Positions 5,573 to 17,706 of a stretch of 64,000 nt of DNA are shown piece after piece. Origin of the DNA: an uncultured Gemmatimonadales bacterium. Lineage in GTDB: Bacteria; Gemmatimonadota; Gemmatimonadetes; Palauibacterales; Palauibacteraceae. A program made the translations under genes and the position numbers. Below the pieces are notes generated by a model. That model worked only from the letters and a program-made list of their open reading frames with translations. It was not told where the DNA came from and searched no databases. The stretch's first letter is position 1. Each line of letters opens with the position of its first letter. Location: positions 64,001 through 128,000 of the forward strand of contig CAWANJ010000001.1 of the NCBI GenBank assembly GCA_963783385.1. The letters run 5' to 3'.

Positions 5573-6964
5573 TCAGCCGCGCGGGCTCCGCCTCCGCTCG
5601 CGATAACGCTCCATGCGGCGCGCCAGGGTGCGCCGGTGGACCCCGAGGATCTCGGCCGCCCGGGTCCGGTTTCCCCCGGCCTCCTCGAGCACGCGGAGGA
5701 TGTACTCGCGCTCGAGCCGGTCCAGGTCCCAACGCTCGTCCTCGGCCCGGCTCAGGAGATCGCCCGCCTTCCCGCGCCCGCGGCGCGTGGTGGGCTCGAA
5801 CCGGATGGCCGGCTGGCCCGCGTACAGGAGCATGGCCCGCTCCACGAAATGCTCCAGCTCGCGCACGTTTCCGGGCCACGGGTATTCCTGCATGCGTACG
5901 AGCGTCTCGGGCAGGATGGCGGGCGCCTCGACGTCGTTCTCCTCGGCGAAGCGTCGCCGGAAGTGCTCGGCCAGGAGAGCGATGTCCTCGCGGCGCTCCC
6001 GCAGGGGCGGCACCCGGATCGGAAATACGTTGAGGCGATAGAACAGGTCTTCCCGGAAGCGGCCCTCCTCGACCGCCTCCTCGAGGTCCTCGTTGGTCGC
6101 CGCCACGAGGCGGAAGTCCACCGGCACCGTCCCCCCGCCGCCGACCCGACGGATCCGCCGCTCCTCGAGCACCCGGAGGAGCTTGACCTGCACGTCCACC
6201 GGGACCGTGGCCAGCTCGTCGAGGAAGAGCGTGCCGCCGTGCGCCTCCTCGACCAGACCGGGACGATCGGCGTGCGCCCCCGTGAAGCTCCCCTTGCGAT
6301 GCCCGAACAGCTCCGCCTCGAGCAGACTCTCCGGGAGCGCCGAGCACACCACGGCCACGAACGGGCCCTCGGCCCGCGGCGAGATCTCGTGGATGGCGCG
6401 GGCGACGAGCTCCTTCCCCGTCCCGGTCTCTCCGGTCACCAGCACGGTGGAGCGCGTCGGGGCGACGCGCCTCACCAGGCCCAGGGCGCGCCGGATGGCC
6501 GGAGAGCGACCGATGATTGGGACGCGCAGGTCGTCCTCGCCCTCCTCGCGGCGGCGGAGAGACCGGCGCCGCTCCGACTCCGCCGCGGCCCGGGTGACGG
6601 CCTCGATCAGGCGGTCGGTCTGAATCGGCCGGGCGAGGCAGTCGGCCGCGCCCCGGTGCATGGCCTCGACCGCGTCCGCCACGTCCCCTTCCTCCGCGAC
6701 CGCCACCAGGCGGGCATCCGTCTCGAGGGGATCGATGCGGGAGAGCACCTCGAGGCCCGAGATTCCCGGCAGCCGGGCCGCGAGCACGGCGGCGTCGAAG
6801 CGGCCCTCACGCAGGCGAAGAAGCCCCTCGTCCCCGCGACCGCACGCCTCGACCCGGAAGCCGCGCTCGCCCAGGACGGCGGCGAGAGCCGCGCGCAGGC
6901 GGGGGTCGGCCTCGACCACGAGGACCCTGTAGACACTGCGCCCGTCGGCAGGCTTGTGTGGCAC
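5573..6964 (-). CDS. Sigma54-dependent enhancer-binding protein (NtrC family) with degenerate receiver domain
   Basis: Walker A GETGTGKE, GSFTGA loop, Walker B LFLDE, RFREDLFYRLNV, PWPGNVREL and a Fis-type HTH (GNRTRAAEILG). Start placed at GTG 6964 (uncertain). Confidence 0.93.
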   Translation of the reverse strand: MPHKPADGRSVYRVLVVEADPRLRAALAAVLGERGFRVEACGRGDEGLLRLREGRFDAAVLAARLPGISGLEVLSRIDPLETDARLVAVAEEGDVADAVEAMHRGAADCLARPIQTDRLIEAVTRAAAESERRRSLRRREEGEDDLRVPIIGRSPAIRRALGLVRRVAPTRSTVLVTGETGTGKELVARAIHEISPRAEGPFVAVVCSALPESLLEAELFGHRKGSFTGAHADRPGLVEEAHGGTLFLDELATVPVDVQVKLLRVLEERRIRRVGGGGTVPVDFRLVAATNEDLEEAVEEGRFREDLFYRLNVFPIRVPPLRERREDIALLAEHFRRRFAEENDVEAPAILPETLVRMQEYPWPGNVRELEHFVERAMLLYAGQPAIRFEPTTRRGRGKAGDLLSRAEDERWDLDRLEREYILRVLEEAGGNRTRAAEILGVHRRTLARRMERYRERRRSPRG

Positions 6965-7117
6965 CGCGGCGTCCCTCGCTATGTTCGCCTCGTCCGGGGT
7001 CCGCCGCGGGGCCTCGAACGGCCGGGTGGGCGTCGCCCTCACTTCAGGGGATTGTCCAAGATATGCGATGCGGAGAGACGCGAAACGGGAAGAAACGCCG
7101 AAGAGGGGGAATTTCCG

Positions 7118-7161
7118 AAAAAGTCGAAACCCCCGACCGGACTCACGGGTCCGATCGGGGG
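7118..7161 (-). terminator. Rho-independent terminator
   Basis: Minus strand reads CCCCCGATCGGAC-ccgtga-GTCCGGTCGGGGG followed by TTTCGACTTTTT. Confidence 0.8.
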
Positions 7162-7417
7162 CCTCGTTGCGTCGGCGAGCCAGAGTCAGTCGGTTTGGCG
7201 TCACCCCGTGTGGTGACCTGACTTGAGGCTCTTTCCCTCGTCGTCACTCGAAAGTCACGACTCAGGCGTCCCCGTTCCCGGGACTACGGCTGCGGCCGAC
7301 GACCTTGCAGCCGGTCTGGGCGGGCCAAACTCCCGCCAGACGAGACGCCCTCCGGCCCGAACCGTCGGGCGTCGCATCCCACATCGTGGTCGCCGAAGCG
7401 TCCTCGTCGTGGGCGGA
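7118..7417 (-). ncRNA. Putative sigma54-dependent structured small RNA (~300 nt), family not recognised
   Basis: Bounded by a -24/-12 promoter and an intrinsic terminator. Seven consecutive hairpins including two UUCG loops, a GGAA loop and a tandem GA/GA internal loop. No convincing ORF. Confidence 0.65.
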
Positions 7418-7427
7418 GGAATGATAG

Positions 7428-7443
7428 AGCAACGCCCGTGCCC
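7428..7443 (-). promoter_or_regulatory. Sigma54 (-24/-12) promoter
   Basis: Minus strand GGGCACG-GGCG-TTGCT versus consensus TGGCACG-N4-TTGCW (one mismatch). Confidence 0.75.
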
Positions 7444-7544
7444 GGCCGGGCCACCTGCCGACCGCATCCGGCGCGCGCCGCGCACCGTATGGGCTCCGGC
7501 CGAATTTCGGGGGCCACGGGCTCGAAGCGAGAAGCCGCCGCTCG

Positions 7545-7593
7545 CGACAAAGTGTCACGAACGACGGCTCCCGGGCCCCGACAGAGTGTCACG
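7545..7593. promoter_or_regulatory. Tandem palindromic upstream activator (enhancer) sites
   Basis: CGACAaagTGTCACG (7545-7559) and CGACAgagTGTCACG (7579-7593), 34 bp apart, about 130-175 bp upstream of the predicted sigma54 start site. Confidence 0.65.
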
Positions 7594-7801
7594 CCAGGGG
7601 CGAGGCGCGGCCCCGGAGACGACCCTCCGGGTGCGCCCGCCCGGGGGCTACGCCTGCGACGTCACGGTGCGGCGCGACGTGCCGCGCCAGGCCATCAGCC
7701 GGAAGATGGCCGGCACCCCCGGCGACCTGGCGAACCTGCGCGAGATTCTCAGGACGCTCGCTCCCGCCGCCTGAAGCGTCCCGGTCATCGGCCGGTGGGC
7801 C

Positions 7802-10800
7802 TCAGCCGCCCCCCTTCTTCCCATTGCCGGCCGCGCTCTTGTCGGGATAGGCCGGCGCGGGCGGCACCGGGTTCGGGTGCTCCCGCATCTCCTTCCGGAG
7901 CTCCTGCACGGCGGCGCGGAGCTGCGCGTCGTGGCCCCCGAAGGTCTGGTGCGGCGCGTTGTCGACCTCGATGTCGGGATCGACCCCGTGACCCTCGATG
8001 AGCCACTGCCCCTTCGGGCCGTACACGCCCATCTCGGCCGCCGAGGCGATGCCGCCATCCACGAGCACGTTGTCGAAGCTGAGCCAGATCTCCCCGCCCC
8101 ACGTCCGGGTGCCGAGCAGCTTGCCCAGCCCCAGCCGCCGAAAGCCCGCGCTGAACGCCTCGCCGTCGGATGCGGTGTGCTCGTTGATGAGCGCGATCGT
8201 GGGCCCGCGGAAGGCCTCCTGCATGTTCCAGCGTGGGCGCCTCCTTGCGAGCCTTGAAGTACATCCAGGCGCGCCGCATGAGTTTCTCCAGGATCCAGCT
8301 GTCGATGTTGCCGCCCCGGTTGTTGCGCACGTCGATGATGAGGGCCTGGCGGTCGAACACGGGGTAGAACTGGCGCTCCCATGCGGCGATGTCCGAGGAG
8401 CCCATGGCGCGCAGGTGCACGTACCCGATCGAGTCGTGGCTGAGGCTGTCGACCTCGAGCCGGCGCGTGTACTCCCACTCGTCGTAGCGCAGGTCGGCGG
8501 CCTGCCGCTCGCCGATGGGCGTCACGATGGCCCGGCGCTCCGCGCCGCCGGCCGCCGGCCGGATCGACAGCAGGATCTGCTTGCCCGCCTTGTGCCGCAG
8601 GAGGGCGCGGTAGTCCGGGACGGACAGCGTCGAGACGCCGTCGATGGCCGTGAGCACGTCGCCGTCGCGCGCCTCGACGCCCGGCCGGGCCAGCGGCGAG
8701 AGCTGGTCGGGAAGGTCGGGGTCGGCGCGGTAGATGTGCTCGACCCTGTAGCCGCCGGCCTTCGGATCCCGCTGCAGCCGCGCCCCGAGCGAGGCCACCT
8801 GGATGGTGTCCTGGCCCGGGCGCATGTCGCCGCCCACCACGAAGGTGTGGAGCGCCGAGAGCTCGGCCACCATCTGGCCGATCACGTCGGACAGCTCCTC
8901 GCGGTCCGTGACCCGCCGCGCCAGCGGGAGGTACTTCTCCTCCATGGCCGGCCAATCGACGCCGTGCATGCCGGGGTCGTAGAAGTAGTCACGGTGCAGC
9001 CGCCAGGCCTCCCGAAACATCTCCATGTACTCGCGCCTCGGGTCCACCTGCAGGGTCCAGTCCCCCAGGTCGACCTGGTCATCGGCCAGCTTGGAAGGAG
9101 GCTTGGGGCCGGCGCCGAACACGTACAGGTCGTCCCCCTTCCGCACCAGGATCTTCTTCCCATCAGCCGACAGCTCGTAGCTGCGCACGCCCTCGACGAG
9201 GGTGGTGGGCTCGGGCTCGTGGTTGGTGATCTCGAGCGCCTCGAGCTTCCTGGTGCGCCGCTCCCCGTTCTCCGACGAGAGCCAGAAGAGCGTCCCGTCC
9301 CCCGCCGACAGGTCGGCGTAGTTGCCGGGCGGGACCGGGACCTCCTCCAGGCGGTCCTGGATCCCCTGAAGCTGGACCCGTACCCGCGGGGGGCGTCGAG
9401 GTCGTGTCGGACCCACCCTTCCCCCTCGCCGTGCGATCCGCCCCCGCCTTGCCACCGCGCTCGCCGGACGCCGACGGACGCGGGCTCGAGCTCGTCGTCG
9501 GGCCGGAAGGGCGAGCGCGTGCCGGGCTCGAGGGCGAGCGCGTAGATCCTGGTGGTGCGGGTGAAGTAGGGCTCGGGCTGCCGGGCGCCCCACGGCGAGC
9601 CCACCGAGGACACGAAGTGCCGGTCGGAGAGGAGGTACAGCCACTTCCCGTCCCGGCTCCATGAGGGCGAGTAACTGGCGTAGCGCGTCGTCGTCACGGG
9701 TGTCGTCGAGCCGTCGTCCACGCCGTACAGGACGACCCGCTCGAACCCGTTCTCGAGCGGCTCCACGTAGGCCAGCCAGCGCGAGTCGGGCGACCAGGCC
9801 AGGTCCCCGAAGTCCCCGTACTCCGAGCGGGCGATCTCCTTGGAGCGCCCCGTGGAGGTGTCCAGGATCCAGAGCCGGTGGTCCTTGTCGTAATGGGCGA
9901 CGCGACGCCCGTCCGGCGCGGGAACGGCGTCCCAGCGCATGATCGTGCCGTCGTGGGTGAGCTGACGTGGCTTGCCGACGCCGTTGGCCGGCAGCTTCCA
10001 GATCTCGACCTCTCCGGTGGAGTCCGACAGCGCAATCAGCGAGTCGCCGCCGGGAGTGAAGCGGGCCCGCCGGTAACGCACGCTGTTGGTGCGTGTCGCT
10101 TCCACGAAGCGGCCCTGCCGCGCGGGGGCCACGAACAGCTGCCCGCGGGCCGTGAGGACGACCCGGTCGCCCGTGGGGGAGAGGTGGACGGCGGTCAGGT
10201 AGTCCATCGGGTCGTGGACCCAGTGGGGCCGAAGCTGGTCGAAGTCGGAGGCCAGGCGAATGGGAACGGTCCGATCCTGGCCGGAGGCGATGTCGAGCAC
10301 GTGGAGGTCGGCGCCGGCCTGGTACACGACGCGGCCGTCGGAGAGGGAGGGTGACTCGAGGTTGTAGACCTCGTGGTGCGTGAGCTCGTTAGGTCTCCGC
10401 CGTTCTCGTCCATGGACCACAGGTTCATGACGCCGTCGCGGTCCGAGGCGAACACGACCCGGCCCTCCCACAGCATCGGGTCCTTGCTCGTGCCCGGATA
10501 GTCGGTGGTCAGCGGCGTGGCCTCCTTCGCTCCCGTCTCGTACTTCCACAGCTGCTGCACGCTCCCGCCCTCGTAGCGATCGGTGTGGCTGCCCTGGAAG
10601 GGGAGGCGCGTGAAGTACAGGACCTTGCCATCGGGGCCGTAGACGCCGTCGGAGGCCTGCGCCAGCGGGAGCACCGTGCGATCGTGCGTCGCCGTGTCGA
10701 GAGCCACGAGCTGCGCGTTGGGAAGGGTCGAGTAATGACGCGTCGTGTACAGGATCCGTCCGTCGGGCGTCCATCCGACCACGGTCGCCCCGCCGCCGTC

Positions 10801-17690: not shown

Positions 17691-17706
17691 GGGCACGCGG
17701 ATTGCG
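17691..17706 (+). promoter_or_regulatory. Sigma54 (-24/-12) promoter upstream of hsp20
   Basis: GGGCACG-CGGA-TTGCG, 85 bp before the ATG. Confidence 0.65.

Follow-up and report, generated by a model that had tools for sequence, protein, structure and literature searches.

A structured RNA gene with two long-range pseudoknots and a predicted sigma54 promoter in an uncultured Gemmatimonadales bacterium

In a 64-kb stretch of DNA from an uncultured Gemmatimonadales bacterium (positions 64,001 to 128,000 of contig CAWANJ010000001.1; hereafter the window, from genome G000), positions 7417-7118 of the minus strand are a stand-alone gene for a structured non-coding RNA of about 300 nt. The RNA exists, is conserved and covarying, and is very abundant in environmental RNA. 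That it constitutes a new, uncatalogued RNA family inside a known type of circuit is largely supported. From the surrounding sequence we infer that its transcription depends on sigma54 and that its activator is the bacterial enhancer-binding protein (bEBP) encoded next to it and, more weakly, that it acts through its fold (by binding, sequestering, scaffolding or catalysis) rather than through a linear seed. Taken as a whole, we consider it probable that the locus carries a stand-alone double-pseudoknot RNA gene of an uncatalogued family, driven in this genus by sigma54 and the bEBP.

Layout of the locus

A preliminary description of the locus, made from its letters alone, had listed tandem boxes, a -24/-12 element, a series of hairpins and a terminator. 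All of these were found where it had placed them on the minus strand, and they are rarer than chance would give. The features are as follows.

7580..7590: distal enhancer-like box, GACACTCTGTC as read on the minus strand, built on GAC-N5-GTC; its centre lies some 143 bp upstream of the -24 GG
7546..7556: proximal enhancer-like box, GACACTTTGTC, centred some 109 bp upstream of this GG
7429..7442, minus: sigma54-type promoter, GGCACGGGCGTTGC; -24 GG at 7442-7441, -12 GC at 7430-7429, predicted start at about 7417
7378..7413, minus: P1 hairpin of the variable 5' domain, from single-sequence folding
7344..7373, minus: P2, the second hairpin of the 5' domain, with a tandem G-A internal loop here and loops of GNRA type in other genera
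7314..7341, minus: P3 hairpin; its loop GUUUGG (7330-7325) forms pseudoknot PK1; 6 of 6 outer pairs with compensatory changes (43 sequences)
7287..7313, minus: P4 hairpin; its loop CGUCGG (7301-7296) forms pseudoknot PK2; 8 of 8 pairs with compensatory changes (43 sequences)
7268..7284, minus: P5 hairpin, stem conserved and loop variable; 100% of alignment cells paired, 1 of 5 pairs covarying and 4 never varying
7229..7266, minus: P6 junction helix, with a hairpin of variable form at 7261-7240 and, at 7239-7229, the conserved purine junction GAGGGAAAGAG
7177..7231, minus: P7-P9 long hairpin, backed by covariation; its 3' internal loop CCAAAC (7198-7193) is the PK1 partner
7170..7175, minus: 3' tail CCGACG, which pairs with the P4 loop in PK2 (97.6% of cells in 21 sequences, 98.4% in 43)
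7118..7166, minus: intrinsic terminator, an 18-pair stem followed by UUUCGACUUUUU, from the terminator scan
5573..6964, minus: gene for an NtrC1-like sigma54 activator with degenerate receiver, AAA+ and HTH_8 domains; proposed activator of the RNA promoter

The bEBP gene lies downstream of the RNA on the same strand, and a gene for a tricorn-type protease lies upstream of the locus. The terminator scan of the minus strand returned one stem (7166-7125, 18 pairs, with ACTTTTT after it). A terminator-like hairpin followed by UUUCG also stands 3' of every homologue read, save a truncated copy and one misaligned sequence (G277).

Fold and covariation

When folded, the 311-nt minus-strand RNA reaches -168.8 kcal/mol, as against -138.7 +/- 6.1 for shuffled sequences (z = -4.96), and none of 100 shuffles was as good. 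The hairpins claimed in the preliminary description (7413-7378, 7373-7344, 7341-7314, 7313-7287, 7284-7268, 7261-7240 and 7231-7177) are the helices later backed by covariation. To these are added two long-range pseudoknots absent from its list, PK1 (7330-7325 with 7198-7193) and PK2 (7301-7296 with 7175-7170). The resulting architecture comprises seven nested helices and two pseudoknots, all of which show compensatory changes among 21 and 43 homologues.

The smaller of these two sets is an alignment for which 20 of the 23 loci in the family were submitted; three redundant loci were left out, and the truncated copy and one poorly aligned sequence were kept. Within it, 94.5% of cells are paired, compared to 84.2% in shuffled and 33-46% in slid controls, and both sides change in 33 of 56 pairs, a count that none of 500 shuffles reached. 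The larger alignment consists of matches from a species-wide pattern scan, described below, and gave 92.8% paired cells (78.1% when shuffled) and both-side changes in 42 of 56 pairs, again beyond all 500 shuffles.

In PK1 the P3 loop pairs with the P8/P9 internal loop, as 96.7% of cells do in the 21 sequences and 82.9% in the 43. Its partners switch together among the homologues, appearing as GUUUGG/CCAAAC, GUUCGG/CCGAAC, GUCUGG/CCAGAC, GUGUGG/CCACAC and CUUGGA/UCCAAG. PK2 joins the P4 loop to the 3' tail (97.6% of cells paired in the 21 sequences, 98.4% in the 43), with the partner sets CGUCGG/CCGACG, CGCUGG/CCAGCG and UGCUGG/CCAGCA. The frequent G-U pairs, one U-G pair being invariant, fit the minus strand only, which identifies it as the strand of the RNA.

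Outside these pairings the family is flexible. A two-hairpin 5' domain is predicted in most of 16 homologues folded singly, on unrelated sequences, with more hairpins in one (G013a), and P6 is a variable insert, with an extended hairpin in G012 and G013a and none in G013b. P5 and P6 have variable apical loops, and two other loops, those of P3 and P4, are consumed by the pseudoknots. Conserved unpaired bases are found at the junctions, namely GAGGGAAAGAG, the AGGU of the P4 loop and a CCUGA strand. We propose that the overall arrangement would be two 5' hairpins followed by a conserved core of about 180 nt, in which P3-P9 would be locked by PK1 and PK2, with the intrinsic terminator at the end.

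Absence from catalogued families

The preliminary description could assign the RNA to no known family, and a search of Rfam 15 likewise yields none: at the gathering threshold there were 0 matches in the 64-kb window. At E <= 10 only noise was returned, the best score being 20.9 bits against a threshold of 80, while the narK model reached 17.3 bits (threshold 43.2) over the sigma54 promoter alone. Literature searches, at the level of abstracts, returned no Gemmatimonadota RNA of a comparable kind.

Expression in environmental RNA

Three metatranscriptome runs from three studies (two of salt marsh, one of sediment) were compared with the locus by matching their contigs to window positions 6000-8500. 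The RNA contigs, with 0-7 differences, span only from 7155, 7166 or 7172 to 7402 or 7406, and their word depth is 470-1950, where the flanks have 0-27; bins 6504-7091 and 7428-7931 are empty. The emptiness of the flanks argues against DNA carry-over. What little matches the bEBP gene, at low depth, consists of short partial matches whose continuations differ from the window.

Adapter letters abut position 7406 in two runs (X2 and X3, with different adapter types) and positions 7166/7172 in two (X3 and X1). Of the two runs with TruSeq-type adapters, X1 has the read-1 adapter at the end with the lower coordinates, and X2 has the read-through adapter at 7406. Provided that the libraries were stranded by the dUTP (deoxyuridine triphosphate) method, we infer that this arrangement fits an RNA of the minus strand.

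Distribution and genomic context

A DNA search of 41 related genomes recovered the locus in three other genomes of the genus at 87-95% identity, and at 73-79% identity in two other genera, one of which has two tandem copies. Two covariance models extended the search. The first (R1) describes a 181-position core, corresponding to window positions 7343-7162. This model detected the RNA in 15 of the 114 genomes that represent its own family (5 of 20 genera), in none of 31 genomes of the sister family, and in 20 of 151 genomes of a phylum-wide sample, all from one class (9 of 31 in f4, 8 of 16 in f6, 1 of 1 in f5 and 1 of 71 in f3). The second (R2) has 84 positions and was built from 59 of 61 distinct 5'-core sequences, the truncated copy and L065 having been dropped. 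It found 21 of the same 151 genomes, a count so close to that of R1 that the patchy distribution is not an artefact of sensitivity.

A scan for the core pattern across one genome per species, about 186,000 species in all, gave 45 stretches, of which 42 were confirmed by R1. The remaining three (two Actinomycetota, one Streptomyces) had no R1 match and were taken as chance. The confirmed copies carry mostly Gemmatimonad- labels (35), with four labelled 'uncultured bacterium' and three labelled Steroidobacteraceae or Gammaproteobacteria. These last copies, in metagenome-assembled genomes (L096, L102 and L132; also L138-L140), are full-length with similar flanks, and R1 recovers each in genome-wide searches. 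Among 121 sampled Steroidobacteraceae genomes only the query genome carries the RNA; together with the similar flanks, this single carrier fits a recent transfer into a small Steroidobacteraceae clade. These copies probably represent transfer of the bare RNA gene between phyla. In one of the gammaproteobacterial genomes (G288), the flanking genes encode a LysM-domain protein and a pyridoxal phosphate (PLP)-dependent enzyme.

The neighbours of the RNA vary by lineage, and in many loci the closest downstream open reading frame (ORF) lies on the opposite strand. A co-oriented bEBP gene downstream of the RNA is found in this genus only. Elsewhere the flanking genes include those for DNA polymerase I (as read from the translation), RNase H, chorismate mutase, AMP-binding enzymes and a threonine-synthase-like PLP enzyme; family assignments come from 40 of the 59 ORFs of at least 120 aa, mostly those closest to the RNA. 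Tandem or dispersed copies occur in five genomes (G013, G061, G060, G058 and G012). With these differing flanks, convergent neighbours and multiple copies, and with no viral contig carrying the conserved-core pattern, the RNA is an independent chromosomal gene. A phage or mobile origin was considered and set aside, given 0 viral contigs and ordinary chromosomal neighbours.

Several genomes have 2 to 4 full copies, in differing arrangements. In G013 two copies stand in tandem (L006/L034), and each of them comes with a sigma70-type promoter and a terminator; G061 has four full copies and one truncated copy on five contigs (L038, L046-L049); and G058 has two identical copies 6 kb apart (L036/L044).

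A predicted sigma54 promoter with tandem upstream boxes

Upstream of the RNA stand two boxes, CGTGACACTCTGTCG at 7593-7579 and CGTGACACTTTGTCG at 7559-7545 on the minus strand. Their pattern, GTGACACTNTGTCG, has 2 matches in the window where 0.05 are expected, and none of 100 shuffles reached 2. The shorter GACA-N3-TGTC occurs at 54 sites in the 3.54-Mb genome, and the only pair within 100 nt of each other is the one upstream of the RNA. Downstream of the boxes lies a -24/-12 element, GGGCACGGGCGTTGCT (7443-7428), whose GG and GC are 10 nt apart as in the sigma54 consensus (taken as close to TGGCACG-N4-TTGCW). The core GGCACG-N4-TTGC has 2 matches in 64 kb against 0.11 expected, again not reached by any of 100 shuffles, and the strict form GGCAYG-N4-TTGC has 11 sites in the genome. 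Across 58 relaxed sigma54-like sites, only the RNA promoter has a box 40-300 bp upstream. A scan for sigma70-type promoters over 6800-7800 found none.

The claim of a sigma54 promoter with tandem boxes gains from comparison within the genus, where 4 of 4 genomes keep the boxes, their 34-bp spacing, the GGCACG and the TTGC, while the N4 spacer and the intervening sequence vary. The genome also has the machinery such a promoter would need, with rpoN present (one Sigma54_DBD match, 218.5 bits) and 10 strong Sigma54_activat matches representing bEBP genes. A 14-mer identical to the RNA promoter lies outside the window on contig C1 (613654-613667, minus strand), before a gene for a pilin-like protein (FTLIELL... 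N-terminus) and beside another bEBP gene, which indicates that sigma54 promoters in this genome look like the -24/-12 element of the RNA.

Two further observations concern the other sites. The pilin-like gene is directly downstream of that other bEBP gene and has repeated TGTCTTGCAA-type sites upstream. The second strict sigma54-type site in the window, GGCACGCGGATTGC at 17692-17705 on the plus strand, is followed about 85 nt downstream by an ATG-initiated frame.

Outside the genus, promoters differ. Sorting the 43 copies by regular expression gave 15 with TTGACA-N17-TAnnnT, three with a sigma54-like element and 25 with neither (one of which has only 63 nt upstream). Copies of lineage f4 (L050, L051, L056-L058 and L063), which are among those lacking a match to either expression, show, by eye, a conserved feature, a near-palindrome TTCAGGG-N3-CCCTGAA about 70-80 nt upstream and no clear -35, which suggests that another dedicated transcription factor may act in that lineage. 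Two of the copies with sigma54-like promoters have a box-like element of their own: L094 has GGGAC-N5-GTCCC about 105 bp upstream of its promoter, and G086 has GGATGTCCCGCC about 130 bp upstream with an A/T-rich stretch between, on a contig different from that of its bEBP gene. Because the family is wider than this locus and its recognisable promoters are mostly of the sigma70 type, the sigma54 wiring is best seen as lineage-specific and not as a property of the RNA.

The candidate activator

The bEBP encoded at 5573-6964 matches the Pfam families Response_reg, Sigma54_activat and HTH_8 and the structure of NtrC1 (4l4u, at 4e-93), and its GSFTGA loop corresponds to the GAFTGA loop of the NtrC family. 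Reciprocal best hits identify orthologues at 53-58% identity, as against 41-46% for paralogues, in nearly every genus of the family. In the loci examined, the genes for these orthologues are preceded by GGGACAAATTGTCC or AATGTCCC boxes, and several of the loci also have a GGCAC...GC element. This recurrence of the same GAC-N5-GTC box type in front of orthologues in other genera strengthens the link between protein and box, and with it the earlier suggestion that the adjacent bEBP would activate the RNA. It supports a view in which the bEBP orthogroup would recognise GAC-N5-GTC and in which, in this genus, the RNA gene would sit between the orthogroup's promoter and the bEBP gene. Judging from the boxes of L094 and G086, the RNA seems to be a recurrent target of this regulator.

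The receiver domain of the bEBP is unusual in this genus. In the three sequences aligned, the Asp is replaced by Ala, the DD by A-D, the Thr by Ala and the Lys by Arg or Met; four aligned orthologues from other genera have intact phosphorylation residues. As read from translations, a histidine kinase gene lies just upstream of the bEBP orthologue in several loci, encoding a PAS-PAS kinase in G086, and no kinase gene adjoins the bEBP gene in this genus. Constitutive activity of the bEBP would fit the high level of the RNA.

Between the RNA terminator and the bEBP gene, a block at 7058-7100 on the minus strand (CTTCGGCGTTTCTTCCCGTTTCGC ... TATCTTG) is kept in 4 of 4 genomes of the genus and may be a weak promoter or a leader element of the bEBP gene. 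A separate sigma70 promoter for that gene (TTTCGC at 7085-7080, TATCTT at 7063-7058) looked weakly promoter-like and was rejected on the criteria of the sigma70 scan.

Proposed mechanism and its weak points

We hypothesize that, in this genus, RNA polymerase bearing sigma54 would transcribe the RNA gene from GGCACG-N4-TTGC, and that the bEBP encoded directly downstream would bind the two GAC-N5-GTC boxes and activate this promoter. The RNA itself would act via its three-dimensional fold, binding or sequestering a protein or small ligand, rather than by linear base pairing or through a peptide. A fold-dependent role is favoured by the clustering of conserved bases at junctions, the variable apical loops, the engagement of loops in pseudoknots, and the fact that neither Hfq nor CsrA was found in the 92%-complete genome. 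Protein binding or sequestration in particular is a tentative reading that we hold with less than even confidence. As a bolder and doubtful proposal, the RNA could be the founding member of a new class of complex-folded RNAs (catalytic, a sensor of small molecules or proteins, or a ribonucleoprotein scaffold), its bare gene moving between phyla and being plugged into lineage-specific inputs. Such inputs would be sigma54 with a bEBP linked to a PAS kinase, a palindrome-dependent promoter, or a constitutive sigma70 promoter. The phospho-dead bEBP of this genus may then be controlled by the RNA or by its product, giving a feedback loop between RNA and protein.

Several points weigh against this account, some of them touching the function of the RNA. 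Searches with the Hfq family (PF17209) gave 0 matches in G000, although the genome is 92% complete and absence is thus not proven. Both alignments were fitted to the nested helices, so the pairing counts lean towards them; the pseudoknots lay outside the model and are free of this bias. The neighbourhood comparison found no conserved neighbour or protein partner of the RNA across lineages. Control by sigma54 says little about what the RNA does, since most recognisable promoters of its homologues are of other types.

Other such points concern its transcription. Just past the -12 element, at 7421-7426 on the minus strand, is a -10-like hexamer (TATCAT here, TATGAG in G001 and G002), whose conservation makes some sigma70 transcription possible; the hexamer is similar to the TATGAT -10 found in homologues driven by sigma70, and it may be left over from the ancestral promoter. 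A receiver lacking its Asp, Thr and Lys implies that the activity of the bEBP is set in some other way or is constitutive. The boxes in this genus may also serve the autoregulation of the bEBP first, with the RNA lying within its leader. Lastly, transcript ends at 7417 and 7120 had been expected: a discrete and abundant RNA with empty flanks is indeed present, but the contigs end at 7406, which falls 11 nt short of the predicted start, and at 7155-7172, ahead of the terminator hairpin. Assembled contigs cannot define RNA ends, and two readings fit these boundaries, namely that structured or terminal sequence was lost in library making or that the RNA is a processed species of about 240 nt.

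Alternative explanations

The RNA might instead be a trans-acting, base-pairing small RNA (sRNA) whose conserved single-stranded seed would be, for instance, the loop of P9 or the purines of GAGGGAAAGAG. An independent gene that has a promoter and an intrinsic terminator, promoters that appear regulated in several lineages, and a nearly invariant purine-rich unpaired stretch at 7239-7229 would all suit such a role. This is nonetheless unlikely, as known seed-type sRNAs are much smaller and have far simpler folds than this RNA, its conserved unpaired bases lie at helix junctions, two of its loops are used in internal pseudoknots, and no Hfq gene was found in G000 (92% complete). Nor does the RNA resemble a CsrA sponge: loops containing GGA exist, two loops are engaged in pseudoknots, and the CsrA family (PF02599) had 0 matches in G000, where this level of completeness again leaves absence unproven.

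A role in cis, as 5' leader or attenuator of the bEBP gene, is in our view quite unlikely; promoter and boxes would then serve autoregulation, and structure and terminator would gate read-through as a riboswitch or a protein-dependent attenuator does. Its appeal lies in the layout, in that bEBP orthologues elsewhere are directly preceded by such boxes (several with a sigma54-like site), in 4 of 4 genus genomes the RNA has a promoter of this kind on one side and, co-oriented on the other, the bEBP gene, and the promoter scan shows no convincing separate bEBP promoter. However, at unrelated loci the RNA comes with its own promoter and terminator, often convergent to its neighbour, in tandem, or in up to four full copies per genome. 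Moreover, no RNA contig covers 7008-7091, between terminator and bEBP gene, against a depth of 470-1950 over the RNA, and the 18-pair terminator stem has no evident alternative pairing kept across genera.

A divergent housekeeping RNA missed by Rfam, of which a polymerase-binding functional counterpart of 6S RNA would be the likeliest, is very improbable. Extreme abundance in RNA libraries and near-consensus sigma70 promoters in many lineages would be in keeping with it, and the Rfam 6S model (RF00013) is silent both in G000 and in all five complete relatives that carry the RNA; this silence is uninformative, since the control detects 6S RNA in 5 of 14 reference genomes and fails in the other 9. 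A 6S RNA would be a long rod with a central bubble resembling an open promoter, whereas the minimum-free-energy and consensus structures are serial hairpins with two pseudoknots, backed by covariation. A distribution limited to 15 of 114 family genomes and to 20-21 of the 151 in the phylum sample is also ill-suited to a housekeeping RNA, and the RNAs of RNase P and the signal recognition particle, as well as transfer-messenger RNA, were located elsewhere in the genome.

Finally, an mRNA for a 40-aa peptide (ATG 7384 to 7262) or another small protein has practically nothing left to recommend it beyond the ATG-initiated 40-codon frame in G000, as G001 and G002 have ACG in place of the ATG, the frame of G002 also contains a 1-nt insertion, substitutions are compensatory in helices and not synonymous, and the overlapping frames 7262-7558 and 7223-7774 have no Pfam family. 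The preliminary description had proposed conservation of this ORF as a check on coding; it is not conserved, and the non-coding reading stands.

Significance

Bacterial RNAs that combine large size with several covarying helices and long-range pseudoknots are, to our knowledge, rare, and new biochemistry has come from every class studied so far. The present RNA is mainly confined to Gemmatimonadota, a poorly studied phylum of soil and sediment, and seems to rank with the most abundant transcripts of its carriers in three environmental RNA data sets. Several of the genomes that carry it are single contigs, which would make experiments feasible if these come from cultured strains. The locus would illustrate the rewiring of one RNA gene, from sigma70 control to a sigma54 promoter served by a specific activator, and it offers a simple, potentially one-promoter regulon in which to study a bEBP without a phosphorylation site. 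The traits that set it apart are the double-pseudoknot fold, the switching of promoter class between lineages, the probable spread between phyla and the phospho-dead candidate activator.

Comparison with known systems

Among the closest known circuits is that of GlmY, a decoy RNA that sequesters RapZ and so acts by protein binding rather than through a seed; glmY and glmZ have mixed sigma54 and sigma70 promoters across species. GlmY with GlrR/QseF of Enterobacteria is described, at abstract level, as an RNA activated by sigma54 and a bEBP (PMC7073468). The locus described here shares with GlmY-GlrR a stand-alone RNA gene, a predicted sigma54 promoter with putative activator sites upstream of it, and a response regulator of the NtrC family. 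It differs in matching no Rfam family, GlmY included, and in having about twice the length, a double pseudoknot and a bEBP with a phospho-dead receiver.

Qrr RNAs and CrcZ work with or on Hfq, the former being about 100 nt long and the latter having repeated A-rich motifs. Here, in contrast, the fold is compact and pseudoknotted, no Hfq gene was found in G000 (92% complete), and Rfam gives no match. The circuits formed by the Qrr sRNAs with LuxO in Vibrio and by CrcZ with CbrB in Pseudomonas are known to us from abstract-level accounts (PMC3730234, PMC11407668, PMC6296734). As in both, the RNA gene stands beside or near that of an NtrC-type activator, here with a predicted sigma54 promoter and putative tandem upstream sites, and some carrier genomes show multi-copy paralogy, as with Qrr1-5.

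The orphan large structured RNAs of bacteria, raiA, OLE, ROOL, GOLLD and HEARO, are all Rfam families. None of their models matches the present RNA, which differs from them also in its taxon, Gemmatimonadota, and in its lack of phage or mobile context (0 viral contigs). The likeness is one of kind only: at least 200 nt in length, with many covarying helices and long-range tertiary pairings, a promoter and terminator of its own, a patchy and lineage-restricted distribution, and high abundance in environmental RNA.

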